A stretch of 64,000 bases of DNA from Nonlabens sp. GTDB lineage: Bacteria > Bacteroidota > Bacteroidia > Flavobacteriales > Flavobacteriaceae. Where the stretch lies: the NCBI RefSeq assembly GCF_039770275.1, contig NZ_JBDMYO010000012.1. One strand, written 5' to 3'. Positions 2,061 through 63,888 of this stretch are shown here, one piece after another (within the stretch, counting starts at the first letter, position 1; each line of letters opens with the position of its first letter). The position numbers and the translations under genes were made by a program. A model generated the notes under the pieces. That model was not told where the DNA came from. It made no database searches and saw nothing but the letters and a program-made list of their open reading frames with translations.

Positions 2061-2076
2061 CGCTTTCGCGAAAGCG
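2061..2076. repeat. 16-bp palindrome CGCTTTCGCGAAAGCG (perfect, intergenic)
   Basis: Direct match; extends to TTCG...CGAA. Confidence 0.95.
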
Positions 2077-2086
2077 AAAAAACAAA

Positions 2087-2113
2087 AAAGCCTTGTCACA
2101 ATAACAAGGCTTT
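2087..2113 (-). terminator. Intrinsic terminator downstream of fabI
   Basis: AAAGCCTTGT-N7-ACAAGGCTTT hairpin followed by a T-run on the minus strand. Confidence 0.7.
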
Positions 2114-2139
2114 AAATTAATTATGATTGATGTATTTGA

Positions 2140-2946
2140 TTAAAACTTTTCAATCACTTCTTGGCTTACGCCGGTATTAGAAAAACCACCATCATGGAAG
2201 AGGTTTTGCATAGTGACTTTTTTAGTATAATCAGAAAATAAAGTCATAGTATACTCTGCACAGTCTTGAGCAGTAGCATTCCCCAAAGGACTCATTTTTT
2301 CCGCATAATTAATAAAACCATCAAAACCTTTAACACCACTACCAGCAGTTGTAGGCGTAGGAGATTGCGATATGGTATTTACTCTTACTTTTTTATCCTT
2401 TCCAAAGAAGTAGCCAAAACTACGTGCGATAGATTCTAAATATGCTTTATTATCTGCCATATCATTATAATCAGGAAAAGTTCTCTGTGCAGCCATATAA
2501 GTTAGTGCTACAATACTACCCCATTCATTCATGGCGTCATTTTTATGAAGCGTTTGCATCACCTTATGAAAAGACACTGCACTAACGTCCCAACCCTTTT
2601 CTGTGTATTTATAATTTTGATCTGTATAAGCATTCCCTTTACGCACATTAACACTCATACCTATAGAATGCAAAACAAAATCTAATTTACCACCTAAAAT
2701 CTCTACAGATTTAGTCACTAAGTTTTCAAGATCTTCTACACTAGTTGCATCGGCAGGTATGATCTGACTTCCTGTCTTTTCTGCAAGCTCATTGATTTGC
2801 CCCATACGCATCGCTACAGGAGCATTAGTTAATACAAAGGTTGCTCCTTCATCGTGAGCAAGTTGTGCTGTTTTCCAAGCAATAGAATTTTCATCCAACG
2901 CGCCAAATATTATACCACGTTTTCCTTTTAATAGATTGTAAGCCAT
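2140..2946 (-). CDS. fabI: Enoyl-ACP reductase
   Basis: GKRGIIFGALDENSIAW, LDFVLHSIGMS, Y..M..NKAYLES, RVNTISQSPT motifs. Confidence 0.93.
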   Translation of the reverse strand: MAYNLLKGKRGIIFGALDENSIAWKTAQLAHDEGATFVLTNAPVAMRMGQINELAEKTGSQIIPADATSVEDLENLVTKSVEILGGKLDFVLHSIGMSVNVRKGNAYTDQNYKYTEKGWDVSAVSFHKVMQTLHKNDAMNEWGSIVALTYMAAQRTFPDYNDMADNKAYLESIARSFGYFFGKDKKVRVNTISQSPTPTTAGSGVKGFDGFINYAEKMSPLGNATAQDCAEYTMTLFSDYTKKVTMQNLFHDGGFSNTGVSQEVIEKF

Positions 2947-2977
2947 AGTTCTTGATTAGAATAGCAAATATATAAAA

Positions 2978-4657
2978 CTAATTGAGTAGCGCACGTGCAT
3001 TTTCCCTTGCAGCATCAGAAATTGTTCCACCACTTAACATCTGGGCAATTTCCTCTAGCCTATCGTCTCCATCAAGACGCTGTATAGTACTGTAAGTCAT
3101 TTTTTCATCGGTTTGCTTTTTCACAATTAAATGATCATCTCCAGCTGCTGCGATTTGTGGTAAGTGCGTTATTGCCATCACTTGCATTTCTTTACTCATT
3201 ACCGTCATTATATCTGCCATTTTAGTAGCGATAGCACCACTTACTCCAGTGTCAATTTCGTCAAAAATGATAGTTGGTAATTTTTTACATCTAGAAAGTA
3301 TCGATTTAATAGCTAACATAAGTCTAGAAAGCTCTCCGCCAGAAGCAGCTTTGTCCAGTGGTAATAATTGAGAACCTTTATTTGCTGTAAACGTAAACTG
3401 AATCATATCCTTACCAGAATCAACAAAATGATCCAACGGTAGCAACTCAATTTTAAATTGAGCGTTGGGCATACCTAATTCAATTACTACTTGGATTATT
3501 TCTTGTTCCAAGGATACTTTATGTTTTATCCTTAAGTCGTGTAGTACCTTACTTATTTTAAGTAATGACTTTTCTGACTCTTGTAATAGCTTTTCTTGTG
3601 TTTTAATCTTCTTTTCTAATCCTTGGGAAACAAAAACCTTATCAGCAAGCTCATCTCTCAATTGAATCAATGATGGTACATCAACCGCTTGATGCTTTCT
3701 GTATAGATTCTCAAGAATAGTTAATGATGTATTTATTTGCAACAATCTTTCTGGGTCTGCCTCTACTTTGTCAGCTTCTCGTGAAGATTCTTCATAGACA
3801 TCTTCTAATTCTAATAATACTGAGGATAGCCTCTCTCTTATGGATGCATAATTAGTTGAATAACTACTTATGCTTTGTAACTTATTTTGCAGCTGCCTCA
3901 ATTGATCCAGGATTCCATGATCATCTTCACTCAACGACGTATTAAATTCTGTAAAAACTTCTGTAATAGTTTCTACATTACTTAATTGCTCATTTTCTTC
4001 TTCTAAAGCAGTTTGATCAATTTTATCAAGGTGCACCGATTCTAATTCTTCTAATAAAAAGTTATTATAATCTAATTCTTTAGACAATAAGGCTTCTTGA
4101 GATTGTAATTTTTTAAGCTCTTTTTGAGCATTTTTAAAAACAACCAACTCTCTCTTATAATTATCAAGTATTAATAAAGCAGGTTCTTTAGAATTCTTTG
4201 TAGCCTCGATAATATAAGCATTCAAAACCTCTGCTTGAAAAGTATCTTTAGAAAGCTGTAATGTTTGATGTTGAGAATGTATATCTACAAGACGCTTACC
4301 TATGTTATTCATAACAGCAAGCGTTACTGGCGTATCGTTTATAAAAGCCCTACTTTTTCCAGAAGGCAAGATCTCTCTTCTTAAAAAACTTACATTTTCA
4401 TAATCTAGATCAAACTCTTGAAAAAGATCCTTTAAACCTAAGGACGTTATTTCAAATTGAGCTTCTACTATACATTTACGAGATGTATCCCTAATGGCAC
4501 TTAAATCTGCCCTATTACCCAGAATCAATACTAATGCACCTAATAAAATAGACTTTCCAGCACCGGTTTCACCAGTAATCATGGTCAGATTTTTTTGAAG
4601 ATCTAATTCTAGTGAATCGATCAATGCAAAATTTTCTATTTGAATTTTTTTAAGCAA
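2978..4657 (-). CDS. recN: DNA repair protein RecN
   Basis: ITGETGAGKS Walker A, ASGGELSR signature, IFDEIDTGVSG, coiled-coil middle; TTG start. Confidence 0.96.
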   Translation of the reverse strand: MLKKIQIENFALIDSLELDLQKNLTMITGETGAGKSILLGALVLILGNRADLSAIRDTSRKCIVEAQFEITSLGLKDLFQEFDLDYENVSFLRREILPSGKSRAFINDTPVTLAVMNNIGKRLVDIHSQHQTLQLSKDTFQAEVLNAYIIEATKNSKEPALLILDNYKRELVVFKNAQKELKKLQSQEALLSKELDYNNFLLEELESVHLDKIDQTALEEENEQLSNVETITEVFTEFNTSLSEDDHGILDQLRQLQNKLQSISSYSTNYASIRERLSSVLLELEDVYEESSREADKVEADPERLLQINTSLTILENLYRKHQAVDVPSLIQLRDELADKVFVSQGLEKKIKTQEKLLQESEKSLLKISKVLHDLRIKHKVSLEQEIIQVVIELGMPNAQFKIELLPLDHFVDSGKDMIQFTFTANKGSQLLPLDKAASGGELSRLMLAIKSILSRCKKLPTIIFDEIDTGVSGAIATKMADIMTVMSKEMQVMAITHLPQIAAAGDDHLIVKKQTDEKMTYSTIQRLDGDDRLEEIAQMLSGGTISDAARENARALLN

Positions 4658-4740: not shown

Positions 4741-5643
4741 CTAAACTTTAATATTACGCCATTTTGAGGACTGATTAGGCGCTAATTTTTGCAGAGACGC
4801 CTTTAAATCTCTAATATCTACCGAAGGACCAGACGAATAAATACTCATAATTTCATCTGCCTTAGCATCAAAAAAAGAGCGTTGTAATAAGCTATTAGGC
4901 CTACGGTCGTTGAGAGCCTCAAATTGTTGTATATATTTCTTTAGAATAATCTTACCAGATTTTGGGTCCTTTGCAAAAACATCAAGCCCCTTTAAATGAT
5001 AGGCATACATGATTTCGCGATACTCTTTATAAGTTTCAGAAAGCATGTCGTCGTTAAGTCTAAATCTAGAGATAAGACCATCGCTCGCTTTCCACCCAAC
5101 AGTTCCCTGAGAGCCTTGAGCCAGGTTCACTATGTTTTGCGCCTCTTCATGAAACTCTTGTCCACCTCTTAGTTCAAAAGTATCTGCGTCGATGCCTAAG
5201 ATGGTATAGGCATAGAAAGATATGAGAGAAATCAAGTTATTCTCATACTGATTCTCATTGTAAAAAAAAGGAGCAAACTCTACATATTCAAACGCAATGT
5301 CATTATCCTTAAAATTAAAGATAGAAGAGGAATAAGAAGAATTAAAAATAGGTCTAGAAGCTGATATTTGAAAATTCCCTCTAAAACGGTCATTATCAAA
5401 AGTGGTTACCACAAATACTAAAGACGCATTGATCTTTTCTTCATCCTTAAACTTTTGATCAGTCCATTTTGTATTATTCAAAAATTCTTGCAATGAAGTT
5501 TCTAAGGTTTTAAAAATGGTCTGATCCGGTTGCGCAACGTTTTGAGCATTGACTTGAACCGAAAAATTAAATTCTTGAGCGCTTACAACACAAACTGTCA
5601 ATAGTGCTATTAACAGACTATAAAATCCTTTTGATAATTTCAT
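4741..5643 (-). CDS. DUF4835 family secreted protein (PorD-like, T9SS-associated)
   Basis: Signal peptide, QEFNFSVQV, FLNNTKWT; conserved position between coaBC and recN in Bacteroidota. Confidence 0.75.
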   Translation of the reverse strand: MKLSKGFYSLLIALLTVCVVSAQEFNFSVQVNAQNVAQPDQTIFKTLETSLQEFLNNTKWTDQKFKDEEKINASLVFVVTTFDNDRFRGNFQISASRPIFNSSYSSSIFNFKDNDIAFEYVEFAPFFYNENQYENNLISLISFYAYTILGIDADTFELRGGQEFHEEAQNIVNLAQGSQGTVGWKASDGLISRFRLNDDMLSETYKEYREIMYAYHLKGLDVFAKDPKSGKIILKKYIQQFEALNDRRPNSLLQRSFFDAKADEIMSIYSSGPSVDIRDLKASLQKLAPNQSSKWRNIKV

Positions 5644-6829
5644 TAATTATATCTTTTGCTACCTCTGTTTTGGGTTTAGTTTCAAATGTAGAGGTGTTTT
5701 TATCCTTATCTATAATCGTAATTTTATTGGTATCAACACCAAAACCAGCACCTTTATCTCGCATAGAATTTAAAATAAGTAAATCGGTCTGTTTTTTCTC
5801 TACTTTCGCGAAAGCGTGCTCCAATTCATTATCTGTTTCTAAAGCAAAGCCTACTAAAAACGGCTTCTTTTCCATTGCTCCTACACTTGCTAATATATCG
5901 GGATTTTTTACCAACTTTATAGTTAACGTATCTGACTTCTTTTTTATTTTCTGGTCAGCAGGATTTGACGGTCTATAATCTGCAACCGCTGCGCTAAAGA
6001 TAGCAACATCTACCACATTAATGATTTCATGAACTGCATCATACATTTGCTGTGCACTTTTTATATTGACTCGATCAATCAATTCATGCTGACAAACAAC
6101 ATGGCTGGGACCCATGATTAAATGAACTCTAGCTCCTTGAGTTGCTAACTCCATTGCAATTGCAGCACCCATTTTACCGCTACTATGATTTCCTATAAAA
6201 CGCACAGGATCAATAGCCTCGTACGTTGGTCCTGCCGTTATGAGACAGGTTTTCCCTCGTAAGGGAAGCTGACTTTCTATATGCTGTTCTATAAATTGAA
6301 TAATCTCTTCTGGCTCTGCCATACGACCTTTACCAGAAAGCCCACTTGCTAATTCTCCATCTCCTGCAGGAATCATAAGATTGCCGTATGAAGCTAGTTT
6401 ATCGAAGTTTGCTGTTGTGGATGGATGTTTGTACATGTCTAGGTCCATCGCTGGAGCAAAATAGACAGAACATTTTGCGCTACAATAAGTGGCTAGAAGT
6501 AGATTATCAATCGTACCATTCACCATTTTACTGATGGTGTTTGCCGTTGCAGGGGCAATAATTATTAAATCTGCCCAAAGACCTAATTCTACATGATTGT
6601 TCCATGTATCATTTTCATCTTCTTCATTAGTGAAATGAGTAAGAACTGGGTGCTTAGAAAGTGTGGATAATGTGAGTGGCGTAACAAAATCCCTTGCAGC
6701 AGGAGTCATTACCACTTTAACAGTTGCGCCTGCTTTAATAAGCAGGCGCACAAGATAAGTTGTTTTGTAAGCAGCAATACCACCGGTTACACCTAGCAAT
6801 ATTTTCTTACCACTTAAAACTGATATCAT
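5618..6829 (-). CDS. coaBC: Phosphopantothenoylcysteine decarboxylase/ligase
   Basis: KKILLGVTGGIAAYK, PATANTISK, APAMD, ITAGPTYEAIDPVRFIGNHSSGKMG. Start re-assigned to ATG 6829 (MISVLSGKK); the ORF-track extension overlaps rpoZ. Confidence 0.95.
   Translation of the reverse strand: MISVLSGKKILLGVTGGIAAYKTTYLVRLLIKAGATVKVVMTPAARDFVTPLTLSTLSKHPVLTHFTNEEDENDTWNNHVELGLWADLIIIAPATANTISKMVNGTIDNLLLATYCSAKCSVYFAPAMDLDMYKHPSTTANFDKLASYGNLMIPAGDGELASGLSGKGRMAEPEEIIQFIEQHIESQLPLRGKTCLITAGPTYEAIDPVRFIGNHSSGKMGAAIAMELATQGARVHLIMGPSHVVCQHELIDRVNIKSAQQMYDAVHEIINVVDVAIFSAAVADYRPSNPADQKIKKKSDTLTIKLVKNPDILASVGAMEKKPFLVGFALETDNELEHAFAKVEKKQTDLLILNSMRDKGAGFGVDTNKITIIDKDKNTSTFETKPKTEVAKDIINEIIKRIL
5801..5816. 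repeat. Palindrome copy (2 mismatches) inside coaBC, encodes AFAKV
   Basis: TACTTTCGCGAAAGCG. Confidence 0.75.
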
Positions 6830-6839
6830 TTTATAAGAT

Positions 6840-7166
6840 TTACTCTTCAGCAGCGCCAGTGTCTCTGAAGTATATTTTACCTTGTAACCATTCTTCAACA
6901 GCAATTGCTGCAGGCTTAGGTAAACGCTCGTAAAATTTAGAAACCTCAATTTGCTCTTTGTTCTCAAAAATTTCTTCAAGAGAATCATTATAAGTAGCAA
7001 ATTCTTCTAGCTTTTCTATAAGCTCTTCTTTAACGTCTGTATTAATTTGCTCAGCACGTTTTGCTATAATAGAAATTGCTTCATACATGTTTCCTGTAGG
7101 AGCAGTTAAAGCATCTCTATTATACGTAATAGTCGTGTTAGGAGCTGTAAGATTTTTAGTATCCAT
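6840..7166 (-). CDS. rpoZ: RNA polymerase omega subunit (Bacteroidota type)
   Basis: GNMYEAISIIAKRAEQIN, EIFENKEQIEVSKFYERLPKP. Confidence 0.9.
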   Translation of the reverse strand: MDTKNLTAPNTTITYNRDALTAPTGNMYEAISIIAKRAEQINTDVKEELIEKLEEFATYNDSLEEIFENKEQIEVSKFYERLPKPAAIAVEEWLQGKIYFRDTGAAEE

Positions 7167-9506: not shown

Positions 9507-10304
9507 ATGAAAAAATATACGATAGAAAAAAGGAAAGGCTTTTTGGGTTATTCCGCTTTCGCGAAAGCGGCAGTAATAACAACCATCCTGCTCGTTTCCT
9601 GTAATCAAAAAGATTACCGACTAGCTAAGGTTACTGGTAGCAAAACAGAGATAGACACCACTATTCAAAGCATCCACGAAATCGATGAATTTATCGCGCC
9701 ATTCAAAAAATCATTAGACGTTCAAATGGACGAAGAATTAAGTTTCAATCCTGTTTCCATGAATAAAAACGATTATAAGTACAATACTCCTTTGGGTAAC
9801 ATGCTGGCCGCAATTGTACTCGAACAAGGAGAACCTATTTATACATCTAGAACTGGCAAAAACATAGATGTAGTTTTATTGAACCATGGTGGCATAAGAG
9901 CAGGATTGCCTGCTGGACCAGTTACCATGAGAAGAGCTTATGAAATCATGCCGTTTGACAATGAAATTATTATCGTTGAACTTACTGGCGAAAAGATGAA
10001 TGAATTGATCAATTACCTTATCGATCGTAAAAGTGCTCACCCATTTAATGGTATGCAAATCATTTTAAATGCAGATAACAGCATTAACAAAGTTTCTATA
10101 CAAAATAAGCCGCTGGATAAAAGTAAAACCTATACCGTAGCAACTAGTGATTATCTATACAGTGGTGGTGATAACATGAGCTTTTTTAAGGAAGCACCGA
10201 TGGTAAAAATAGATTATAAAATACGTAATGCAACAATCGATTATTTTAAGAAAGTAGATACTATTAGATTTGAACGCGACAACCGATTTGAGGTTCTAGA
10301 TTAA
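9507..10304 (+). CDS. 5'-nucleotidase C-terminal domain lipoprotein
   Basis: Lipobox LLVSC; NHGGIRA, EIMPFDN, TSDYLYSGGD motifs. Confidence 0.88.
   Translation: MKKYTIEKRKGFLGYSAFAKAAVITTILLVSCNQKDYRLAKVTGSKTEIDTTIQSIHEIDEFIAPFKKSLDVQMDEELSFNPVSMNKNDYKYNTPLGNMLAAIVLEQGEPIYTSRTGKNIDVVLLNHGGIRAGLPAGPVTMRRAYEIMPFDNEIIIVELTGEKMNELINYLIDRKSAHPFNGMQIILNADNSINKVSIQNKPLDKSKTYTVATSDYLYSGGDNMSFFKEAPMVKIDYKIRNATIDYFKKVDTIRFERDNRFEVLD
9554..9569. repeat. Palindrome copy (perfect) inside the signal-peptide region of the 5'-nucleotidase gene, encodes SAFAKAA
   Basis: Direct match; extends to CCG...CGG. Confidence 0.95.
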
Positions 10305-10315
10305 AAAGCAAGAAA

Positions 10316-11242
10316 ATGGAAAGAAGAAAATTTATACGCAATACAAGTACTGGCATCATGGCTGGTGCGGCTTTATGGTCCAACTATGCTCTCGCTAATG
10401 GTATTTTCACTGGACCAGAACTAGCACCTGGAACTAAGAAAATTACCATTTTACATACTAATGACACACACTCACACATCGAACCTATTTCTGGAGGTCG
10501 TAATGATGGTCGTGGTGGCGTTGCTCGCAGGGCTGCCATAATTAATAAAGTGCGTTCTGAAAACCCCAGTACTTTATTACTAGATTGTGGCGATATCTTT
10601 CAAGGTACACCATATTTTAACTTCTATGGCGGTGAGCTTGAGATTAAATTAATGTCTATGATGGGATATGATGCTGCGACTATAGGAAATCACGATTTTG
10701 ATAACAGTATAGAAGGCCTGTATAAGCAGTTACCTAATGCAGATTTTGACTTTGTTATATCCAATTATGATTTTTCAAATACAATAATGGATGGACATAC
10801 TAAGCCTTACAAGGTTATGGTTAAAGATGGTGTACGTATCGGACTTTTTGGTGTAGGAATAAAACTTGATGGATTGGTTGACCCAAAAATGTATAAAGAA
10901 ACTATTTACAACGATCCAATAGAGGTAGCAAAAGATCAAATTAAAACACTACGGGAGACTGAAAGATGTGATATCGTTATTTGCATGTCACATTTAGGCT
11001 ATTCCTATAGAAGTGATAAACCATCTGACTTATCGCTTGCGGCAGCAACATCTGGGATAGACCTTATTATAGGTGGGCATACACATACGTTTTTAGATGA
11101 ACCTGTAATTGTTAAAAACGCCTTGGATAAAGAAGTGATGGTAAATCAAGTAGGTTGCTATGGTATCAACCTAGGTCGTATAGATTTTTACCTTAAAGAT
11201 GGTAAATTAGATAAAGGTATGGATGTTGTATATGAAGTTTAA
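10316..11242 (+). CDS. Metallophosphoesterase (5'-nucleotidase N-terminal half), Tat signal
   Basis: MERRKFI twin-arginine motif; HTNDTH, DCGD, GNHDFD, GGHTH metal ligands. Confidence 0.9.
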   Translation: MERRKFIRNTSTGIMAGAALWSNYALANGIFTGPELAPGTKKITILHTNDTHSHIEPISGGRNDGRGGVARRAAIINKVRSENPSTLLLDCGDIFQGTPYFNFYGGELEIKLMSMMGYDAATIGNHDFDNSIEGLYKQLPNADFDFVISNYDFSNTIMDGHTKPYKVMVKDGVRIGLFGVGIKLDGLVDPKMYKETIYNDPIEVAKDQIKTLRETERCDIVICMSHLGYSYRSDKPSDLSLAAATSGIDLIIGGHTHTFLDEPVIVKNALDKEVMVNQVGCYGINLGRIDFYLKDGKLDKGMDVVYEV

Positions 11243-12682: not shown

Positions 12683-12698
12683 CGCTGTCGCGAAAGCG
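12683..12698. repeat. Palindrome copy (1 mismatch) between convergent amtB and ligA
   Basis: TTTTCCGCTGTCGCGAAAGCGGAAAA (12678-12703), 26-bp imperfect palindrome. Confidence 0.85.
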
Positions 12699-12728: not shown

Positions 12729-15191
<2,463 letters not shown>

Positions 15192-15202
<11 letters not shown>

Positions 15203-15428
15203 TTGCTTCATCTCTATCAAAATCAAACTTACCTACATATTTACCATGCTCTTCAGCAAAATTGAGAAGCTTATCTACAGAGGATTCGTATTTTTTAGGC
15301 TTCCTAACATTGTTTTCTAGAAACTCTCTAATTACTTCGTTAAGAGACTTCCCTTGCTTTTTAGCATATTCTTTACTTGCTTCTATGAGCTGATCTGATA
15401 ATCTGATTGTTAAATTTTTTGTTGCCAT
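15192..15428 (-). CDS. Ribbon-helix-helix antitoxin (DUF6364-like)
   Basis: KNLTIRLSDQLIEASKEYAKKQGKSLNEVIREFL RHH pattern; directly upstream of and overlapping the PIN gene. Confidence 0.85.
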
Positions 15429-15715: not shown

Positions 15716-18013
15716 ATGAAATTACGTCTCGCGATACTTTTTCTAAGCCTTATGTTCATTATCGGTTGTAAGGAACAAGGAGTTCAACTATTAAGTCCAT
15801 CTATCATTCCTGCTCCACAATTTTTAAAAGTAGATGCTAGACACTTCAGCATTGATGCAGCTACCATCATCAGTAATGGGGACGATTTCACACATTCTGT
15901 AGACTTTTTAAAAGCCTTTTTAGAACAAGGAACTGGTCGTAATTGGGAAACTAATTATACCACTGAAAACATTATCACTTTTGAATATGACGGCGCGATT
16001 ACTTCAAAAGAAGGTTACACTATAGAAATTAATGAGCAACAAATCCTCATTAAAGCCAGTACCGATACCGGCGCTTTCTATGCCGCTCAATCTCTTATAC
16101 AATTAATGCCAACAGATTTTTTGGATTCGAAAAACATTTCAGAAATTCACATTCCTGCGGTTACCATAAACGACGAGCCACGTTTTAAATATCGTGGTAT
16201 GCACCTCGATGTATCGCGACATATGTACGATGTGGATTTCATCAAGAAATACATCAACGCGATGGCGATGTTAAAGATGAACAACTTTCACTGGCATCTT
16301 ACAGATGATCAAGGCTGGCGTATCGAGATTAAGAAATATCCGCGATTACAAGAAGTAGCCGCTTATCGTGACAGCACTTTATTGGGTCATTACAACGACA
16401 CACCACATCAATATGACGGTAAAAAGTACGGTGGTTTTTATACACAAGAAGAAGTTCGTGAGGTGATCGCTTTCGCGAAAGCGAGACACATCAACGTCAT
16501 TCCAGAAATAGAACTACCTGGTCACGCACAAGCCGCTATCGCCGCCTATCCAGAATTGGGTTGTACTGGAGAAAATGTCCAAGTTGCCATGAAATGGGGC
16601 GTTTTTGAAGACATCTACTGCCCAAGCGAAGAAACTTTTACATTCCTAGAAAATGTACTGGACGAAGTAATGGAATTATTCCCTTCCAAATACATACACA
16701 TAGGTGGCGATGAAGCGCCTAAAACGCAATGGAAAACCAGTGCTGTCGCGCAACAAGTTATTCAAGAAAACGGCTTAACAGATGAGTATGAATTACAATC
16801 CTATTTTATCCAGCGCATGGAGCGATACCTCAACTCAAAAGGTCGCCAAATCATAGGTTGGGACGAGATTCTAGAAGGTGGACTGGCGCCTAATGCTACC
16901 GTAATGAGCTGGCGTGGTACTCAAGGGGCTGTCGAGGCCGCACAAGCTGGACACGATGTGATTATGACGCCTACGTCGCATGCTTATTTTGACTATTATC
17001 AAAGTGAAAATGATGACGAACCACTTGCCATAGGCGGATTTCTACCTTTAGAAAAAGTATATAATTTCAATCCTATTCCACAAGAACTGACCAAAGAAGA
17101 ATCCAAACATATTCTAGGACCACAAGGAAATGTATGGACAGAATATATGAAGACCAGCGACCAGGTGGAATACATGGCTTTTCCTCGCATGCTGGCCATG
17201 AGCGAAGTTGCATGGACTAACGAAGCAAACAAAGATTACTCTGGCTTTTTAAATAGACTTGAGGCTTTTCACAAACGATTAGATGCACTGGATATCAACT
17301 ATGCAAATCATCTTTATGAAGTGAGCGGCGTTTTAAATGATAGTCTCGCCTACGAATTAAGCACCGTAACCTTAGGAAAAGAAATACGCTACACAACAGA
17401 TGGGACGATACCTGATGCTACTTCTACCTTATATGAAAGAGCTATTCCATTTAACCAAAACCTAGAAATCAACACCACTGTTTTCAAAGATGGTAAAGCG
17501 CTAGGAAAAATGTTTAAACAAGAATTGATCTACCATAAAGGTGTAGGCGCAACCCTAACGATTGATAAAACACCGCACAGCGCTTATGCTGGTAGTGGCG
17601 CTACAGGATTGATTAACGGCATTAAAGGAAGTGATTCCCGTTATGGCGATAGTGAATGGTTGGGATTTTGGGGAGAAGACCTTGAAATTGAAATCGAATT
17701 TGAGGAACCTATTTTAATCTCAGAAATCGAGCTTAGATTTTACAATGCGCCTGGGCAGTGGATTTATGCGCCGAAACAATTTTCGTTTTACTCAAGATTT
17801 GAAAGCGGAGCTCTAGTTGCAGATAAAATTTTACTTAAAAATGAGGCTCAAAGTTCGCTAGTAGATTTTAAGTACGATTTTGGAAAATATAACAAAAGCA
17901 ATAAGTCAAAAAATATAAAATTCATAATCCCAAACTATGGCTTCATCCCAGAAGGCAAACAAGGCGCAGGAAATAAAGCCTGGACTTTTATTGATGAGAT
18001 TGTAATTAGGTGA
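15716..18013 (+). CDS. Beta-N-acetylhexosaminidase (GH20), lipoprotein with C-terminal accessory domains
   Basis: RGMHLDVSRH, FHWHLTDDQGWR, HIGGDE catalytic motif, IGWDEI; lipobox IIGC. Confidence 0.93.
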   Translation: MKLRLAILFLSLMFIIGCKEQGVQLLSPSIIPAPQFLKVDARHFSIDAATIISNGDDFTHSVDFLKAFLEQGTGRNWETNYTTENIITFEYDGAITSKEGYTIEINEQQILIKASTDTGAFYAAQSLIQLMPTDFLDSKNISEIHIPAVTINDEPRFKYRGMHLDVSRHMYDVDFIKKYINAMAMLKMNNFHWHLTDDQGWRIEIKKYPRLQEVAAYRDSTLLGHYNDTPHQYDGKKYGGFYTQEEVREVIAFAKARHINVIPEIELPGHAQAAIAAYPELGCTGENVQVAMKWGVFEDIYCPSEETFTFLENVLDEVMELFPSKYIHIGGDEAPKTQWKTSAVAQQVIQENGLTDEYELQSYFIQRMERYLNSKGRQIIGWDEILEGGLAPNATVMSWRGTQGAVEAAQAGHDVIMTPTSHAYFDYYQSENDDEPLAIGGFLPLEKVYNFNPIPQELTKEESKHILGPQGNVWTEYMKTSDQVEYMAFPRMLAMSEVAWTNEANKDYSGFLNRLEAFHKRLDALDINYANHLYEVSGVLNDSLAYELSTVTLGKEIRYTTDGTIPDATSTLYERAIPFNQNLEINTTVFKDGKALGKMFKQELIYHKGVGATLTIDKTPHSAYAGSGATGLINGIKGSDSRYGDSEWLGFWGEDLEIEIEFEEPILISEIELRFYNAPGQWIYAPKQFSFYSRFESGALVADKILLKNEAQSSLVDFKYDFGKYNKSNKSKNIKFIIPNYGFIPEGKQGAGNKAWTFIDEIVIR
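16468..16483. repeat. Palindrome copy (perfect) inside the GH20 gene, encodes IAFAKAR
   Basis: Direct match. Confidence 0.95.
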
Positions 18014-44558: not shown

Positions 44559-44580
44559 AATTACCTTTTATAAAATTTGA

Positions 44581-44670: not shown

Positions 44671-44686
44671 CGCTTTCGCGAAAGCG
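44671..44686. repeat. Palindrome copy (perfect, intergenic between convergent genes)
   Basis: Direct match. Confidence 0.95.
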
Positions 44687-44864
44687 AATTATATAAAAAA
44701 CAGGTTAATAAAATCACCTATATCTGAGTGTAAAAGTACTGACACACCATAGCCTTATAGTTTTATAGAGAAATATTCAAATAGGTTTTAAGTTATCAGA
44801 TCATATTTCTAACAGGCTGAATCTTTCTCTTTCAAATTAAACGATAAATTGCTATACATAATCA

Positions 44865-48492: not shown

Positions 48493-49652
48493 TATCTAGG
48501 AATCTCGATGTTTTCTAATATTTGTGATACAGCACGATCTGCTGTAAGTCCTTCCATTTCTCTTTCAGGAGTTAATATAATTCTATGACTCATGACCGCA
48601 GTTGCGATATATTTAATGTCATCTGGTGTAACAAAATCACGTCCCATAATAGCTGCATATGCTTTAGAACCGTTCATAATAGCAATAGATGCACGTGGTG
48701 ATGCTCCTAAATAAAGATTAGGGTTGTTACGTGTATCTAAAATTATCTTTGCGATGTACTTGATCAAATTGTTTTCTATCACAATCTCTTTAACCGTTTT
48801 CTGATATTTTGCAATCTCAGTGGCATTCATGATGGCATTAACAGTCGATTCTGCATCGGCGTTTTTACGATCATGATGATCGGTAAGAATCTGGATTTCT
48901 TCTTCCAGATTAGGATAACCTACATTAATTTTAAATAAGAAACGGTCTAATTGCGCTTCTGGCAATCTATATGTTCCTTCTTGTTCTACTGGGTTTTGAG
49001 TAGCAAATACTAAAAACGGAGCATTTAACTCGTATTCCTTACCATCGATGGTTACTTGACGTTCTGCCATAGCTTCAAAAAGAGCTGCTTGCGTTTTTGC
49101 CGGTGCTCTATTAATCTCATCGATCAAAATGATATTTGAAAATATAGGTCCTGGTTTGAATTCGAACTCGTTGTTTTTCATAGAGAAAACAGATGTTCCC
49201 AATATGTCTGATGGCATCAAATCTGGAGTAAATTGTATACGTGAGAAGTCTACCTGGATTGTTTTTGCCAGCAACTTTGCAGTAATTGTTTTTGCAACTC
49301 CAGGAACTCCTTCAATCAAAGAATGACCGTTTGCTAGTATGGAAACGATCAATAAATCGATCATTTCTTCCTGGCCTACGATTACTTTACGCAATTCAGT
49401 CTTTATTTTATAAACCGCCGCACTTAAATGATTCAAATCCAGTCTGTTTTGAAATTGTAAAGATGTAGCTTTATCTTCTACTTGTGGCTGGTCTTGGGGT
49501 GGTATTGTTGATGGTTGTTCCGCTTTCGCGAAAGCGTTATCAATACCAACCTCTTCACTGTTTTGAACAAATTGATCTTGTGCTGGCTCTTGTGGTGGCT
49601 GGCTATTAGATGGATCTTGAGGATTGTTCAAATCGTTATTAGTTTCTTCCAT
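48492..49652 (-). CDS. moxR: MoxR family AAA+ ATPase
   Basis: GVPGVAKT, RIQFTPDLMPSD, DEINRAPAKTQ, ATQNPVEQEGTY.LPEAQLDRF, ASPRAS. Confidence 0.95.
   Translation of the reverse strand: MEETNNDLNNPQDPSNSQPPQEPAQDQFVQNSEEVGIDNAFAKAEQPSTIPPQDQPQVEDKATSLQFQNRLDLNHLSAAVYKIKTELRKVIVGQEEMIDLLIVSILANGHSLIEGVPGVAKTITAKLLAKTIQVDFSRIQFTPDLMPSDILGTSVFSMKNNEFEFKPGPIFSNIILIDEINRAPAKTQAALFEAMAERQVTIDGKEYELNAPFLVFATQNPVEQEGTYRLPEAQLDRFLFKINVGYPNLEEEIQILTDHHDRKNADAESTVNAIMNATEIAKYQKTVKEIVIENNLIKYIAKIILDTRNNPNLYLGASPRASIAIMNGSKAYAAIMGRDFVTPDDIKYIATAVMSHRIILTPEREMEGLTADRAVSQILENIEIPR
49521..49536. repeat. Palindrome copy (perfect) inside the MoxR N-terminal extension, encodes NAFAKAE
   Basis: Direct match. 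Confidence 0.95.
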
Positions 49653-53629: not shown

Positions 53630-54352
53630 ATGTCAAATACTGCAATTAACACGGCACAAAATGTAAATATTGAATATGAGTTTGCTGGTGTAGGAAAGCG
53701 CATGATTGCTTTTTTACTCGATTTTGTAGTGCTAGCCATTTATATAATAGTGATGAGTTTAACTGTTTACAAAGCCATTGGACTCTTTGATAGTAATAAT
53801 GTCTTAGGAATTAAAGAGTTATCTCTTCTACCCATTTTTTGTTATTCATTAACTCTACATCTTATTTTTAATGGTCGCACAGTAGGTAAATTCATAATGG
53901 GTATCAAAGTAGTTAAGGAAGATGGATCGCCTGCAAACCTATCTGATTTTCTTGTTAGATGGATATTGAGATTGATTGATATTGTATTGTTTTTTGGAAC
54001 CGTAGGCGTTGTCACCATTTTATTTTCTGAAAAAAAGCAACGTTTAGGAGATATTGCTGCAAAAACAATTGTTATCAATACTAAAAAAAGCACTAAAATT
54101 TCTCATACCATACTAGAAGAGCTTGATCCCAATTATCAACCTCAATTTCAAAATGCCTACATCCTATCTGACGCTGTAGTTAATGAGATCAAAGATATCT
54201 ATCGTCTAGCTGGCGAAAGTCGCGATTACATGACTCTTAGAGAATTGCGCAATAGAGTAGAGCAACTATTAAACACTCAATCAGATTTACGAGATGGCGC
54301 ATTTATACGCACAGTTCTTAAAGATTACACTTATTTAACTCAAGGACGATGA
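53630..54352 (+). CDS. RDD family protein
   Basis: R..AFLLD, GRTVGK, RW..R.ID, QRLGD.AA.T. Confidence 0.9.
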   Translation: MSNTAINTAQNVNIEYEFAGVGKRMIAFLLDFVVLAIYIIVMSLTVYKAIGLFDSNNVLGIKELSLLPIFCYSLTLHLIFNGRTVGKFIMGIKVVKEDGSPANLSDFLVRWILRLIDIVLFFGTVGVVTILFSEKKQRLGDIAAKTIVINTKKSTKISHTILEELDPNYQPQFQNAYILSDAVVNEIKDIYRLAGESRDYMTLRELRNRVEQLLNTQSDLRDGAFIRTVLKDYTYLTQGR

Positions 54353-54972
54353 ATTTCATTGAAATTATTGATGTTTTAGGTACTATTGCCTTTGCGATTT
54401 CTGGTGCTCTTGCAGCTTTTTCAAAAAAATTAGATCCATTTGGTATTATAATAATTGCGTTTGTTACTGCTATAGGCGGCGGTACTTTGAGAGATATTTT
54501 AATAGGTGTTGATCCTGTTTCATGGATGCGCAATATGAATACTATTTACATTATTCTTGCTTGCGTTATCATCACTTTTATTTTTAAAACCAAACTATTA
54601 AAACTACGTAAGACGTTATTTTTATTTGACGCTATTGGGATAGGTTTATATACTGTGGTTGGTTTAGAAATGGGAATTGTCGCAGGTTTAAACCCTTTTA
54701 TATGTATCATACTTGGCTGTATGACAGCCTGTTTTGGTGGTGTGATACGTGATATTTTGATCAATGAAATTCCTGTAATTTTCAGAAAAAATATTTATGC
54801 TACTGCTTGCATTGCTGGTGGTATGATTTACTTTTTGCTTTTAGAATTTAATTTATCTAACAATATTGTTTTCATCGTTTCAGCTATAACAGTAATTGCA
54901 ACACGTGTTTTGGCTGTTATTTTTAAATTAAAGCTTCCTTCTCCGTATAGTGATGAAATTATAAAAGAATAA
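54349..54972 (+). CDS. TRIC/UPF0126 (YadS-like) membrane protein
   Basis: AFAISGA, TAIGGGTLRD, FDAIG.G, FGGVIRD. Confidence 0.9.
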   Translation: MNFIEIIDVLGTIAFAISGALAAFSKKLDPFGIIIIAFVTAIGGGTLRDILIGVDPVSWMRNMNTIYIILACVIITFIFKTKLLKLRKTLFLFDAIGIGLYTVVGLEMGIVAGLNPFICIILGCMTACFGGVIRDILINEIPVIFRKNIYATACIAGGMIYFLLLEFNLSNNIVFIVSAITVIATRVLAVIFKLKLPSPYSDEIIKE

Positions 54973-54986: not shown

Positions 54987-55002
54987 CGCTTTCGCGAAAG
55001 CG
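54987..55002. repeat. Palindrome copy (perfect) between convergent genes
   Basis: Direct match; extends to TTTCG...CGAAA. Confidence 0.95.
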
Positions 55003-60589: not shown

Positions 60590-60729
60590 AAATTCATTTT
60601 TGAATTTGCAAAAATACTCAATCTGTAGAGTTTTAGTAGAACTCTTTGCCATCAATTTAACAGTGTATTAACTCGATTTTTAGATCATTAAGCCGTTTTT
60701 TGTTGTTATCTATTATTATTGTTAATTTT

Positions 60730-62190
60730 ATGCTTTTTTATTCCTCGCTTTCGCGAAAGCGTAACTATTATACAGCCCATGTTATCGCCCTACTAACATG
60801 CCTACTGATCATTTGCTCTTGTGAAAAAAAAGATGATGATTCTACATCCCTTTATGTTACTGGAAAAATTATTAATCCAAAAGGGGATTATGTAATTATT
60901 AAAAATTATTCTGGAATCAACGATACACTTGCATTAGATAAAAAAGGCGTTTTTATCAAAGAATATAAAGAGCTAAAACCAGGTCTTTACACATTCACAC
61001 ATCCGACAGAGTATCAATCTATTTATTTAGGTCATGGCGATACTTTGCGTTTAAGATTAAACACAAAGGCATTTGATGAATCCCTTGCTTTTACTGGTGC
61101 AGCAGCAAAAGAAAATAATTATTTAATTAATTTATTTCTAGAGATCGAGGAACAAAATAGATCTCTTTTGAGCGAATATCAAAGAGAGCCTAGTGACTTT
61201 AAAAAAATGATTGATAGCATTAATGAAATTAGAGTTAAAAAACTTAACAAGTTAGCTTCGGCAAATAAATTTCAAGATGAATTTGTGAAAAGCGCTATGA
61301 AAATACTCAATTTCAATTCGTGGTCCCGACTAGAACGCTATGCATCTGCACATTATGGGAAAAATGAAATTCTAAAAAGTGATGTTCTTCCTTCTAATTT
61401 TTATTCCTACAGACGTGATTTAGAAATATGCAGTACAGATTTATTAAACAATTATGCTTACCGCCCTTACATAACAGCACATTTATCTAATCTTGCTCTT
61501 TATAATTGTGCTCTCAAGCATGGAACTGGAAAAACGGTGGATCGCAATGGCCTTGAATACCGTAAAGAAAAACTGAATGTTATAGACAGTCTTTTTACAG
61601 ACGAAGAGTTAAAAGGTCTTTTTGCAGGTATTGAAACTAGAAATTTCATAAGAAGCAGAAAAAACGCTGTTGAAATTAATCAACTGGTTGCAAAATTTCT
61701 AGAAATTTCTCAAGATGAAGAATTGAATAATGAAATCACAAAAATGGCTGCCACCTACATCGACCTAGATCCAGGCAATAAGCTCCCTGATTTTGACCTT
61801 TACAAATTTAATAAAGAAATTACCACACTTTCTTCTCAAGTGAAAGGATTGAGCGTTCTTTTTTACTGGTCCAATAAGAATGAATCCTATGCATTGAGAA
61901 TTCATAGAAAAGTAAATGATTTAAGGATAAAATATCCAGAAATCAATTTTATAGGTGTTAATCTAGACGATCCAAAAAGTAATGTATGGAGTGAAACCAG
62001 CCAGAAATTTGGTTTCAAAAAATCATCAGAATTTCAATTAGTAGATAATCAATCTATAAGTAAACAGCTGGCGTTAAGAAATGACAATCGCAGTATGGTT
62101 ATCGCGCCAGAACTAGTCATATTAGACCCAAACATTAATTTGTTTCATTATCAAATAGAAACCACACTATTAGGTTATTTAAGTAGATAG
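60730..62190 (+). CDS. Lipoprotein with a C-terminal TlpA/thioredoxin-like fold (no CxxC)
   Basis: Lipobox ICSC; C-terminal GNKLPDF..VLFYWS..IGVNLD; start at ATG 60730 inferred. Confidence 0.7.
   Translation: MLFYSSLSRKRNYYTAHVIALLTCLLIICSCEKKDDDSTSLYVTGKIINPKGDYVIIKNYSGINDTLALDKKGVFIKEYKELKPGLYTFTHPTEYQSIYLGHGDTLRLRLNTKAFDESLAFTGAAAKENNYLINLFLEIEEQNRSLLSEYQREPSDFKKMIDSINEIRVKKLNKLASANKFQDEFVKSAMKILNFNSWSRLERYASAHYGKNEILKSDVLPSNFYSYRRDLEICSTDLLNNYAYRPYITAHLSNLALYNCALKHGTGKTVDRNGLEYRKEKLNVIDSLFTDEELKGLFAGIETRNFIRSRKNAVEINQLVAKFLEISQDEELNNEITKMAATYIDLDPGNKLPDFDLYKFNKEITTLSSQVKGLSVLFYWSNKNESYALRIHRKVNDLRIKYPEINFIGVNLDDPKSNVWSETSQKFGFKKSSEFQLVDNQSISKQLALRNDNRSMVIAPELVILDPNINLFHYQIETTLLGYLSR
60746..60761. 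repeat. Palindrome copy (perfect) in the signal-peptide n-region, encodes SLSRKR
   Basis: Direct match. Confidence 0.95.
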
Positions 62191-62234: not shown

Positions 62235-62267
62235 GTTTCTCATTTATTACTGATAAGTAATTAAACA

Positions 62268-62924
62268 TTAAGAATTTCCTTTCTTATAGTCTTCAAGAAA
62301 TTTAGCAAGTCCTATATCTGTTAAAGGGTGTTTTAATAATCCTTCAATAGAAGAAAGTGGTCCCGTCATTACATCTGCACCTAATTTTGCACAATCAATA
62401 ACGTGCATAGTATGTCTTACAGATGCGGCAAGAATTTCTGTTTCAAAACCATAATTATCAAAAATCATTCTAATCTCTGCAATAAGGTTCAAACCGTCTG
62501 TGCTGATGTCGTCTAATCTTCCAATAAATGGAGATACATAAGTAGCACCTGCTTTTGCAGCTAATAACGCCTGACCTGCGCTAAAAACAAGAGTAACATT
62601 AGTCTTGATTCCTTTATCAGAAAAATACTTACAAGCTTTAACACCATCCTTAATCATTGGTAATTTTACTACGATCTGATCATTAAGTGCTGCTAGAGCT
62701 TCTCCTTCTCTAACCATACCTTCAAAATCTGTAGAAATCACCTCTGCACTTACATCACCTTCAACAAGGTCACAAATCTTCTTGTAGTGATTGATAATAT
62801 TTTCTTCACCAGTAATGCCTTCTTTGGCCATAAGTGAAGGGTTTGTAGTAACGCCATCAAGAATACCCATATCCTGAGCATCTGCAATTTGATCTAGGTT
62901 TGCTGTGTCAATAAAAAATTTCAT
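62268..62924 (-). CDS. fsa: Transaldolase / fructose-6-phosphate aldolase family
   Basis: MKFFIDTAN, GVTTNPSL, VVKLP, NVTL.FS, YVSPFIGR.DD. Confidence 0.92.
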   Translation of the reverse strand: MKFFIDTANLDQIADAQDMGILDGVTTNPSLMAKEGITGEENIINHYKKICDLVEGDVSAEVISTDFEGMVREGEALAALNDQIVVKLPMIKDGVKACKYFSDKGIKTNVTLVFSAGQALLAAKAGATYVSPFIGRLDDISTDGLNLIAEIRMIFDNYGFETEILAASVRHTMHVIDCAKLGADVMTGPLSSIEGLLKHPLTDIGLAKFLEDYKKGNS

Positions 62925-63040
62925 CGTTTTTTTTCTTTAAGGTAATAGTTATAAATATCTGCAAAAATGGAGTTTACCTTTGTTAATTAAGTATTTTTGC
63001 TAACCTAAATATGATTATTTTTTAACAAATCACTTTAGTT

Positions 63041-63862
63041 ATGAATAGAATTACAAAGTACTCTATTGTAGCTCTTACCATATTACTTATTACTAGCAGC
63101 TGTAGTTTATTTAAACCAGTCAGCTCTACTGACCCATTTATAATAGATCCATCTACTCCGCCAGGGACTATAAAGCTGACAAATGATCTTTATATAGATC
63201 GCGTCCCTGTTACAAATTTAATGTATAACGAGTTTTTAGAGAATATTGAAAACTACTGGTCTTTAGAAAAGCATGAAAAGATGAAGGAATATCCACGTTT
63301 TGGATTAGAAGAAGATAGTGTTTTCACTCCATGGACTGGGAACACTCGTTTGTATATGCAGGTAAATCATCAAAATCCAGAAGAGATGATCACTACAAAA
63401 TTAAATATGGAAAACTATGCCAATAGTCCATTTTTTCAATGGCATCCCGTAGTAAACATTTCTAGAAAACAGGCAGAATTATATTGTTTATGGCGCACTG
63501 ATCTAGCAAATGCAGTTTATGCAATGAAAAGTAAGAATGCTTCAAGACGTTCTATATTTCCATATCAAGTAAAATTTAGATTACCAACGCAAAAAGAAAT
63601 GATAGCTGCTCAAAACAAATTAGAGCGTGAATATAAATTGACTAAGTATCAGGAACAAATTTATGCCTACACCGGTGACTTTGGACTTTTTAGAAGAATG
63701 CAAGACAATAAAGGCCAGATGACTATCTTAGAAATTAAAGAAATTGCAAAAGACACCGTATTTAACGCTATGTTAGATAGACGTTTATCTTATTACGAGC
63801 AAGAAGAGCTTAAGACAGGTTTTAGGTGTATCTGTGAGGTTACTAAGGAACAGAAAAATTAG
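63041..63862 (+). CDS. Lipoprotein with an FGE/SUMF1-like (GldJ/GldK-related) domain
   Basis: Lipobox TSSC; YIDR.PVTN..Y.EF, HPVVNIS..QA..YC.WR, RLPT..E, GFRC. Confidence 0.75.
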   Translation: MNRITKYSIVALTILLITSSCSLFKPVSSTDPFIIDPSTPPGTIKLTNDLYIDRVPVTNLMYNEFLENIENYWSLEKHEKMKEYPRFGLEEDSVFTPWTGNTRLYMQVNHQNPEEMITTKLNMENYANSPFFQWHPVVNISRKQAELYCLWRTDLANAVYAMKSKNASRRSIFPYQVKFRLPTQKEMIAAQNKLEREYKLTKYQEQIYAYTGDFGLFRRMQDNKGQMTILEIKEIAKDTVFNAMLDRRLSYYEQEELKTGFRCICEVTKEQKN

Positions 63863-63872
63863 TATATTATTT

Positions 63873-63888
63873 CGCTTTCGCGAAAGCG
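63873..63888. repeat. Palindrome copy (perfect, intergenic)
   Basis: Direct match. Confidence 0.95.

Follow-up and report, generated by a model that had tools for sequence, protein, structure and literature searches.

An ancient, clade-specific 16-bp palindrome maintained as a DNA-level signal in the chromosomes of Nonlabens, Dokdonia and related Flavobacteriaceae

The 64,000-nucleotide stretch of DNA analyzed here (contig NZ_JBDMYO010000012.1 of the Nonlabens sp. assembly GCF_039770275.1; hereafter the window) is ordinary core chromosome, with genes including dnaA (27066-28493), recN, coaBC, ligA, ribD, mutL and an ABC-F ATPase gene, and it is probably origin-proximal since it contains dnaA. 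Of the open reading frames (ORFs) of the window that were scanned, none showed a transposase, integrase or RAYT-like domain, and the window contains no tRNA and no Rfam family. Distributed over these genes and the spacers between them is a 16-bp palindrome, CGCTTTCGCGAAAGCG (hereafter the word), which is present at full density beside dnaA (upstream spacer 26886-27065) as well. Our analysis showed that the word is a clade-specific, ancient and actively maintained DNA-level signal; it arises in place and takes precedence over codon choice, with protein tolerance acting as a filter on it. It falls into the class of genomic words that comprises HIP1 (highly iterated palindrome 1) and the DNA-uptake sequences, as an analogue that is unrelated to HIP1 proper by sequence. 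The preliminary description had likewise read it as a lineage-specific genome-wide signal and not as a repetitive extragenic palindromic (REP) element or a miniature inverted-repeat transposable element (MITE), and this class reading is borne out by the restriction to a clade, the retention of orthologous sites, the in-place origin and the codon override.

The window contains 14 perfect copies of the word and six copies with one or two mismatches, and all 20 positions and sequences given beforehand proved correct. When the window was shuffled 100 times with its dinucleotides preserved, no shuffle attained these counts, whether of exact copies or of those with one or two mismatches. Base composition (GC about 0.35) predicts 1.95e-6 exact copies per 64 kb, which agrees with the earlier estimate of rarity; the GC content measured across the window is 0.32-0.38. 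The over-representation therefore amounts to orders of magnitude (14 exact copies against 2e-6 expected), as in the HIP1 class. An additional copy with three mismatches was found at 14053, and the mismatch spectrum was sharply bimodal, with 14, 4, 2, 1 and 0 copies at zero to four mismatches, while from five mismatches onward the counts were at the level of chance (at five, 9 observed vs 7.2 expected). All 17 occurrences of the inner 8-mer TTCGCGAA in the window lie within the word, and the window scan found no isolated half-sites. Since neither the 8-mer nor the half-sites stand alone, the repeated unit is the entire word. The flanks of the 20 window copies have no sequence in common, and complementarity ends at ±1-2 nt, indicating that the word is not the core of a longer repeat; a MITE was rejected on the same grounds.

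The hard core, as defined by 318 non-redundant copies from the clade, is the 14-mer GCTTTCGCGAAAGC. Nearly all of the variation falls on the outermost base (C to T in 50 copies and C to A in 30), whereas positions 2-8 of the half-site are almost invariant and position 4 never changes; across about 70% of the copies, hardly any variation is seen at the 14 positions. A symmetric compensating change was found in 4 of the 38 multi-mismatch variants, in every case at the degenerate outer position, and the hairpin that a single strand of the word can form is weak (-4.3 kcal/mol, z -0.9). The lack of covariation and the unremarkable hairpin indicate that the two half-sites are read independently on duplex DNA and are not maintained as a hairpin, and hairpin function as the main constraint was rejected accordingly.

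Around the core we observed a soft, mirror-symmetric context of about 12-20 nt. In the 57 non-coding copies, T stands at position -2 in 85% and A at position -1 in 58%, T reaches about 50-55% at -8 to -12, and C is nearly excluded (1-8%) to about -18, with the complement of this pattern on the 3' side. The full preferred site spans about 40 bp and consists of T-tract, TA, core, TA and A-tract, the T-tract lying about 10 nt to the 5' side and the A-tract about 10 nt to the 3' side; after the palindrome, both strands are A-rich and T-poor. Protein contacts together with bending, or a mutational footprint, could each account for this context. Symmetric flanks extending toward TTCCG...CGGAA had been reported earlier. 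The TTC...GAA part does exist, but in a minority of copies, since in the trinucleotide table of all arms GAA follows 12% and TA-N about 31%, so that TA...TA is the commoner form. The longer version may have been conflated with a separate hairpin repeat, TTCCGCATCGAGTGCGGAA, located at 21484-21502 and 22628-22646. A stop codon directly abuts the word in 5 of 206 copies.

Eleven of the 20 window copies are located inside long ORFs, as are about 148 of 205 copies clade-wide, and seven of the eleven are read as A-F-A-K-A, two as R-F-R/H-E-S and two as L-S-R-K. The first group comprises a 2-mismatch copy, TACTTTCGCGAAAGCG, at 5801-5816 within the CoaBC-like gene (5618-7000, minus strand; read H-A-F-A-K-V), an exact copy at 9554-9569 in the signal-peptide region of a 5'-nucleotidase-like lipoprotein gene (9507-10304, plus; S-A-F-A-K-A), an exact copy at 16468-16483 within a GH20 beta-hexosaminidase gene (15716-18013, plus; I-A-F-A-K-A-R), a 1-mismatch copy beginning TGC at 18718-18733 within cutC (18164-18895, plus; S-A-F-A-K-A), and three more exact copies, at 23483-23498 within ribD (23277-24290, plus; D-A-F-A-K-A), at 25135-25150 in the last five codons of an EamA transporter gene (24287-25153, plus; ending I-A-F-A-K-A-stop) and at 49521-49536 within a MoxR-type AAA ATPase gene (48492-49652, minus; N-A-F-A-K-A). 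The second group consists of the copy at 20118-20133 within a GH2 mannosidase-like gene (18885-21413, plus), which has one mismatch, a central G to A change, and is read R-F-H-E-S, and the exact copy at 31581-31596 within an enolase-superfamily (MR_MLE) gene (31054-32097, minus), read R-F-R-E-S. The L-S-R-K readings are found at 38215-38230 (one mismatch), near the 3' end of a cupin gene (37725-38273, plus), and at 60746-60761 (exact), in the N-terminal region of the ORF 60700-62190 (plus), where the reading is S-L-S-R-K-R. The 3-mismatch sequence CATTTTCGCGCAAGCG at 14053-14068 lies within ligA (12729-14783, minus) and is possibly a decaying copy. Directly upstream of the ligA ORF and overlapping it by one base is a PIN-domain gene (14783-15226, minus), possibly a toxin-type nuclease gene that is unusually placed.

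Proteins that the word crosses take on its codons and its peptides, namely A-F-A-K-A, R-F-R-E-S and L-S-R-K. In DNA of the clade, the peptide A-F-A-K-A reaches 33.5 occurrences per 100,000 codons compared with 0.2 in other Flavobacteriaceae, a difference of about 150-fold. Moreover, 78 of 87 A-F-A-K-A peptides are spelled exactly with the word, while the usage of TTC (0.20) and GCG (0.13) predicts a fraction of about 8e-4. Selection at the protein level for A-F-A-K-A was rejected, because relatives essentially lack the peptide and the codons used for it are rare ones. The three frames are used in a ratio of 83:35:29 over 147 coding copies of the clade (P = 2e-8), the commonest yielding the most innocuous of the peptides, which is what a filter by protein function on the persistence of the word would produce.

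The comparison of orthologous proteins revealed how coding copies arise. Seven other Nonlabens-clade loci have the word at the same five codons of ribD, with all synonymous positions kept while the flanking codons drift, and at the same place Flavobacterium, Polaribacter and a dozen other genera have L-L-(S/K)-K-A (LLSKA/LLKKA) of the same length. One motif-bearing uncultured lineage (L199) has an independent ribD copy ten codons upstream, where the conserved S-V-K-D has become V-F-A-K-A with the length unchanged. Similarly, the terminase of a Mu-like prophage of the clade has H-I-A-F-A-K-A at the place of H-L-K-A-A-K-Q in the cultured relative of this prophage, Peternella_1. These cases, two independent sites in RibD and one in the terminase, represent substitution at constant length and not insertion, and an in-place gain replaces about 5-9 bases. 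In the ribD of a second uncultured lineage (L166; gene at 10001-10975) we observed at the Nonlabens word position CTTTCAGAAAG, an odd palindrome shorter by one base and read D-L-S-E-S, which could be turned into the word only through a frameshift.

These observations bear on the possibility that the word is a miniature mobile element (REP, REPIN or MITE) spread by a RAYT/IS200-type or other transposase. The word is a high-copy palindrome with an intergenic excess, found partly at gene ends like REP, REPIN, BIME (bacterial interspersed mosaic element) and MITE-like repeats, and in one recent intergenic gain the spacer is 13-26 nt longer. This is the copy at 26429, whose spacer measures 62-63 nt with the word and 37-50 nt in genomes without it; whether a small insertion took place there is ambiguous, the spacers being too diverged to decide. 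For coding copies, however, mobility is contradicted, since more than half of the copies lie in ORFs that have the same length as in outgroups, and an insertion of 16 nt would break reading frames. REPs are strictly extragenic, imperfect, 20-40 nt long, often paired and tied to RAYTs, whereas the word is exact and intragenic without indels. In addition, its sites are orthologous across species and not polymorphic, and neither conserved ends past the word nor target duplications were found in the flanks. The preliminary description had noted no target duplication and no nearby transposase and had named a full-length autonomous element, or a RAYT/IS200-type transposase with these ends elsewhere in the genome, as what would overturn its reading; no transposase or RAYT domain was found among the ORFs scanned in the 64-kb window. 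We therefore regard a mobile element as highly improbable.

The remaining nine copies of the window are intergenic, and non-coding DNA is enriched for the word (7 of 18 copies vs 9.4% of the DNA, P = 8e-4). Intergenic copies favor gene ends; three of the nine convergent spacers are occupied, and several copies lie 10-21 nt past a stop codon. An exact copy at 2061-2076 lies 63 nt past the stop of an enoyl-ACP reductase-like gene (2140-2946, minus), and a 1-mismatch copy at 12683-12698, whose palindrome extends to 28 bp, lies between the convergent genes for an ammonium transporter and ligA, whose stops are 16 and 30 nt away, respectively. The exact copy at 26429-26444 occupies the spacer of two tandem genes, 21 nt past a thioesterase stop and 26 nt ahead of the ATG of a PNPOx-like gene. 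The mechanically assigned start of the ORF 25857-26426 (minus; GTG at 26426) is probably wrong, and alignment with the closest relative (L265) places the PNPOx-like start at an ATG 26 nt downstream (~26400), so that this copy is intergenic. Other exact copies are found in a divergent intergenic region (32833-32848, within 32787-32946), 50 nt upstream of a peroxiredoxin gene (42188-42203; gene 42254-42889, plus), in a convergent intergenic region (44671-44686, within 44559-44864), between convergent genes 14 nt past the stop of 54349-54972 (plus) (54987-55002), and 10 nt past the stop of 63041-63862 (plus) (63873-63888). A 2-mismatch intergenic copy, GGCTTTCGCAAAAGCG, is located at 38398-38413. 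It forms with the copy at 38215 a pair of degenerate copies 183 nt apart at the cupin 3' end, the sole close pair in the window. A metatranscriptome contig matches the window up to 44686, the last base of the copy at 44671, and diverges at 44687; it probably represents another locus or strain that shares only the word. The region is present in one fragmentary metatranscriptome only, which makes the transcript evidence uninformative.

The location of several intergenic copies 10-21 nt past stops or between convergent genes is what one would expect of an RNA-level element, either a transcription terminator or an mRNA-stabilizing hairpin, and 2 of the 6 copies in the 20 kb scanned for intrinsic terminators were flagged as terminator-like. 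Half of the copies, however, lie within ORFs, the hairpin is weak and shows no compensatory changes, and no Rfam family matches. A terminator tail would be the opposite of the 3' flank, which on both strands is rich in A and poor in T, and a terminator was rejected on this polarity. At 2061, the canonical terminator of the enoyl-ACP reductase-like gene, a hairpin with a T-tract at 2087-2113, lies between the stop and the word. An RNA-level role thus appears as remote as mobility does.

Repeats unrelated to the word were also observed in the window. REP-like repeats flank a prmC-like gene, comprising an element of about 25 nt, CAGTTCAAGCGCAGTCGAGAACG, which is present with its reverse complement as inverted copies (21428-21452 and 22583-22609), and a hairpin, AAAGCAGATTCCGCATCGAGTGCGGAA, present twice as direct copies (21476-21502 and 22620-22646). 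A tandem run of about six TTCAAG/TTCGAG hexamers (21503-21538) abuts the 3' end of the prmC-like gene. The third REP-like sequence of this set, CGACTTCGACAAGCTCAGTCTGACA, is located at 23190-23220, and one Nonlabens genome (L123) has a relative of it at the place of the cutC palindrome of other Nonlabens.

We then compared individual sites between genomes. In a 20-kb syntenic block, seven of eight window sites are orthologous in 4-5 other Nonlabens genomes that are about 77% identical overall. Identity is 98% in the core (316/322) vs 84% in the 150-nt flanks (5292/6333; Fisher P = 4e-17). When 448 motif-centered segments were masked and compared all against all, 49 orthologous site clusters resulted, which extend to lineages with GC contents of 0.43 and 0.47. 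The largest, at the C-terminus of the EamA transporter (25135), has 16 members and is the oldest site seen; it reaches the GC-0.43 lineages L166 and L339, whose RibD is only 59% identical to that of the window. A scan with the site-specific EamA sequence ATYGCTTTCGCGAAAGCGTRA was unspecific because TA/TAA belongs to the flank consensus, and its matches served as additional data. A Dokdonia cluster has nine members, and at least one site pair joins Nonlabens and Dokdonia. Among the other window copies, that at 16468 is present in five other genomes, that at 20118 has exact orthologs in 4-6, and that at 31581 is shared with four. The copy at 5801 has an ortholog in Nonlabens antarcticus (L312), that at 54987 is also found in Nonlabens M30B61 (L281), and that at 60746 is common to L060 and L281. 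Two Nonlabens genomes (L117 and L118) have exact orthologous copies of the 12683 site and also share the cutC copy at 18718, for which L123 has the different REP-like element, and the copy at 26429 is common only to the closest relative. The word is thus conserved at orthologous sites both within and between ORFs, as is HIP1.

Among the matches listed, with one genome taken per species, exact copies were found in Dokdonia, Nonlabens and a handful of uncultured Flavobacteriaceae, which carry several copies per 8-kb block and whose uncultured members reach a GC content of 0.47, while the matches elsewhere (Curtobacterium, Planctomycetales and alphaproteobacteria) are single copies attributable to chance. 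We also examined 80 ribD-centered loci, and copies were found only in the uncultured Flavobacteriaceae lineages L166 (seven) and L199 (three) and in a Leeuwenhoekiella metagenome-assembled genome (L219; one). The control set drawn from them (1.46 Mb, about 77 loci of other Flavobacteriaceae) omits L199 and two mislabelled non-Flavobacteriaceae contigs and keeps L219, with L166 counted as bearing. The clade DNA (0.97 Mb) contains 184 exact copies and the control DNA none. The count across Flavobacteriaceae called for in the preliminary description accordingly restricts the word to Nonlabens, Dokdonia and a few uncultured relatives. No comparable repeated palindromic 12-mer "dialects" were found in the control loci at the depth covered, except for the 3-copy CCGAAGCTTCGG in one Flavobacterium and a low-complexity word.

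The density in the window, 1 per 3.2 kb, is somewhat above that of random 8-kb blocks of relatives (about 1 per 4-10 kb), and across the bearing clade it is about 1 per 3-10 kb. By extrapolation from 0.1-0.3 copies per kb, a genome of about 3.3 Mb would hold some 400-1000 copies. The copies of the window are spaced more evenly than random (coefficient of variation 0.50, P = 7e-4), and the largest gap is 5.8 kb (P = 5e-3); this result comes from one window, which is ori-proximal, and the seven sites in 21 kb of L166 are less regular, with gaps of 0.5 to 8 kb.

Such spacing raises the possibility that the word is an array of binding sites for some abundant protein of the chromosome (nucleoid-associated, SMC/condensin-loading, Noc/SlmA/MatP-like or replication-linked), with individually selected sites in a chromosome that needs one per few kilobases. 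A perfect palindrome of 14-16 bp with symmetric A/T-tract arms is typical of the sites of dimeric DNA-bending proteins. Single sites are conserved over the long term, resident prophages gain sites, full density is kept adjoining dnaA, and HIP1 has been argued to serve nucleoid structure (PMC5861425). The sites parS (read by ParB), NBS (by Noc), SBS (by SlmA) and matS (by MatP) are likewise dimer-read perfect palindromes of 14-16 bp, and parS and NBS share with the word a TTTC...GAAA layout, in which its half-site spacing is 2 bp shorter. However, selected protein sites are normally fuzzy, unlike these 14 nearly invariant positions. The known sets comprise 10-100 degenerate sites in particular chromosome regions, and the extrapolated hundreds of copies of the word exceed them by an order of magnitude. 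No candidate protein was identified, and the evenness was not seen again in L166. We consider a binding-site array a tenable but rather doubtful explanation, second to the one that we favor below.

The word is also carried by phages. In IMG/VR, 42 stretches carry it, and the multi-copy contigs, at about 1 per 4-5 kb and thus at host density, are genuine phage genomes and fall into two kinds. One is a sipho-type prophage family that recurs and encodes integrase, portal, protease, major head protein and tape measure; in this family, motif positions are kept between relatives that are only 66-81% identical. Members of this family (L130, L133, L139, L143, L150 and L155) recur in many metagenomes, some of them about 99% identical, and the family may be a long-resident or domesticated element of the clade. 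The second kind is a Mu-like myovirus group with a GC content of 0.45-0.48 and copies within the terminase and portal genes. Its cultured relative Peternella_1, which has Mu-type transposases and infects Winogradskyella, a genus without the word, contains no copies in 39.6 kb. The cultured virulent Nonlabens siphoviruses P12024S and P12024L (L246 and L247), which have no annotated integrase, also lack the word, even at three mismatches. The word therefore tracks long-term residence in these chromosomes and not mere replication in these cells. Since zero is the chance expectation too, its absence from virulent phages shows only that it does not accumulate there.

The genomes of P12024S and P12024L strongly avoid CGCG (observed/expected 0.21-0.23), CCGG (0.06) and TTCGAA (0.12) and contain no TCGCGA, whereas CGCG stands at 0.85 in Peternella; the host window also avoids TTCGAA (0.21). 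This avoidance suggests that Nonlabens has restriction(-modification) systems with CGCG, CCGG and TTCGAA specificities, and if the host restricts and modifies CGCG, the central CGCG of every host copy of the word is probably methylated. A methyltransferase acting on the CGCG core is only hinted at by these phage data.

Two further explanations are related to these features. One is a Chi-like or defense self marker, in which the word would attenuate or redirect a nuclease (AddAB/RecBCD-type or a defense system), so that DNA bearing it is spared or recombined and DNA without it is degraded. Its density of about 1 per 3-5 kb resembles that of Chi in Escherichia coli, it is found on the chromosome and resident prophages and not on virulent phages, just as Chi is a self-identifying word at about 1 per 5 kb that many phages lack, and a Chi-like contribution has been proposed for HIP1 (bioRxiv 10.1101/2024.09.10.611283). 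Chi, however, is a polar, asymmetric 5-8-mer that acts on one strand, in single-stranded DNA, with a replication-linked skew, whereas the word is a long perfect palindrome without polarity that contains far more information than such a role needs, and its absence from virulent phages equals the chance expectation. We find this explanation unlikely.

The other is that the word is a functionless by-product of a mutation or repair bias, by which a methyltransferase with very-short-patch-type repair, or a templated "writer", converts near-matches. Copies do arise in place through substitution, the spectrum of mismatches has two modes and lacks intermediates, the central CGCG is probably a host methylation or restriction site, and all resident DNA gains the word, prophages included. 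Near-matches with five and six mismatches are mildly depleted in bearing genomes (0.79 and 0.93 of expectation vs 1.11 and 1.18 in non-bearing ones), which fits the recruitment of near-matches but is only suggestive, because the two sets differ in taxon and composition. We know of no repair bias that specifies 14 bases, and the effects of very-short-patch repair are modest and concern 4-5-mers. Conservation of sites across species, which was used to argue for selection on HIP1 (PMC5861425), is present here as well, and the frame bias and the gene-end excess reveal a filter only and not a source. Such a bias is, in our view, about as improbable as a Chi-like marker.

Among the closest known systems is HIP1 (GCGATCGC) of cyanobacteria. 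Its sites are conserved within and between ORFs and non-randomly spaced (PMC5861425), it has been reported to raise natural transformation, an effect that depends on methylation (bioRxiv 10.1101/2024.09.10.611283), and to co-vary with the DNA-uptake machinery (bioRxiv 10.64898/2026.06.24.733823), so that a word whose function was long unknown is now linked to transformation (PMC5861425; PMC4390886; bioRxiv 10.1101/2024.09.10.611283; 10.64898/2026.06.24.733823). The word resembles HIP1 in being a hyper-abundant palindrome in coding and non-coding DNA that is conserved, spread by substitution and non-randomly spaced, and its core, too, overlaps a probable methylation site. Unlike HIP1, it is 14-16 bp long instead of 8 bp, with about twice the information, it occurs about once per 3-10 kb where HIP1 reaches more than 1 per kb, and it is confined to few genera, in Bacteroidota, whereas HIP1 is phylum-wide. 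Soft A/T-tract flanks distinguish it further, and it is no variant of GCGATCGC with the cognate GATC/CGATCG methyltransferases, its sequence and length being unrelated.

The uptake sequences offer a second comparison. The DNA uptake sequence (DUS) of Neisseria is a 12-mer with ComP as its receptor, and the uptake signal sequence (USS) of Pasteurellaceae is a 9-mer core with AT-rich flanks, a core-plus-AT-tract architecture like that of the word. The word shares with both the genomic pattern of a clade-specific exact word accumulated by point substitution, located at gene ends and in tolerated frames, present in related species and evenly spaced, although its evenness was found in one window. 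DUS and USS differ from it in being asymmetric, shorter and about 3-10 times denser, and in having a demonstrated function and receptor. Within the Flavobacteriales, natural competence and self-DNA preference have been described in Riemerella, with no uptake sequence identified there (PMC7965970, which also provides context for the DUS/USS comparison).

Based on these observations, we suggest, as the likeliest of the functions considered, that the word is a self-DNA tag for natural transformation and/or subsequent recombination; this function is argued from the analogous words, and we assign it a probability of roughly 0.4. A reader in the form of a two-fold symmetric (dimeric) protein on duplex DNA is suggested by the near-invariance of the abutting half-sites, by the missing covariation and by the symmetry of the A/T-tract arms; it would contact two half-sites of 7-8 bp, bend or contact the arms, and cover a footprint of about 40 bp. 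Binding, uptake or recombination would favor DNA fragments that bear the word, and near-consensus variants would be preferentially fixed (molecular drive), subject to the filter of protein tolerance. Such a drive would account for the near-invariance of the core, the frame bias, the gene-end excess and the fairly even spacing, and maintenance by selection or biased fixation is the best reading of the data. We rank the binding-site array second, the Chi-like or defense marker and the repair bias next, and the mobile and RNA-level elements last.

Here, we need to consider several points that weigh against a self-DNA tag. Uptake, binding and methylation are predicted from sequence and analogy, and natural competence of Nonlabens or Dokdonia is not documented in the literature searched. 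The word, a palindrome of 14-16 bp at about 1 per 3-10 kb, is longer and sparser than known uptake sequences, which are asymmetric 9-12-mers and occur about once per kb. The even spacing comes from the single ori-proximal window, against the irregular gaps of L166, and the lack of visible intermediates with 3-5 mismatches is awkward for a purely gradual drive. The absence from virulent phages is uninformative on function, as zero copies are expected by chance and CGCG is avoided there anyway. Finally, a selected array of binding sites on the chromosome accommodates all of the comparative facts just as well.

Neither the 16-mer nor its 12-mer core was found in any paper, and no paper on such a repeat in Dokdonia or Nonlabens was found, in the literature searched; an already characterized function, which the preliminary description had named as grounds for withdrawing its reading, was likewise not encountered there. 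The word is new within the known kind of hyper-abundant genomic words represented by HIP1, DUS/USS and Chi, from which it differs in that it is a palindrome twice as long that has structured flanks, belongs to a new phylum and is also carried by resident temperate phages. Tentatively, and with more doubt than belief, we propose that it might be the first sequence-specific self-DNA signal of Bacteroidota (for uptake and/or recombination), a 14-16-bp, probably methylated palindrome with a dimeric receptor, common to two genera and their temperate phages.

Exact words of such abundance are rare, and the known cases (Chi, DUS/USS and HIP1) have proved, or are now proving, to mark the recognition, movement or repair of self-DNA. 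The present word visibly rewrites proteins, nearly every A-F-A-K-A of the proteome coming from it, and, being shared by two abundant marine genera of Flavobacteriaceae and their prophages, it provides an independent system in which the purpose of such words can be tested. It is a handle for finding the reader protein and possibly a marker of the host by which temperate phages and metagenomic contigs could be assigned to the clade. If it is a true uptake or recombination tag, it would offer a way to make these bacteria transformable, and it would be a second independent instance of the role suspected for HIP1, in genetically more tractable marine heterotrophs.

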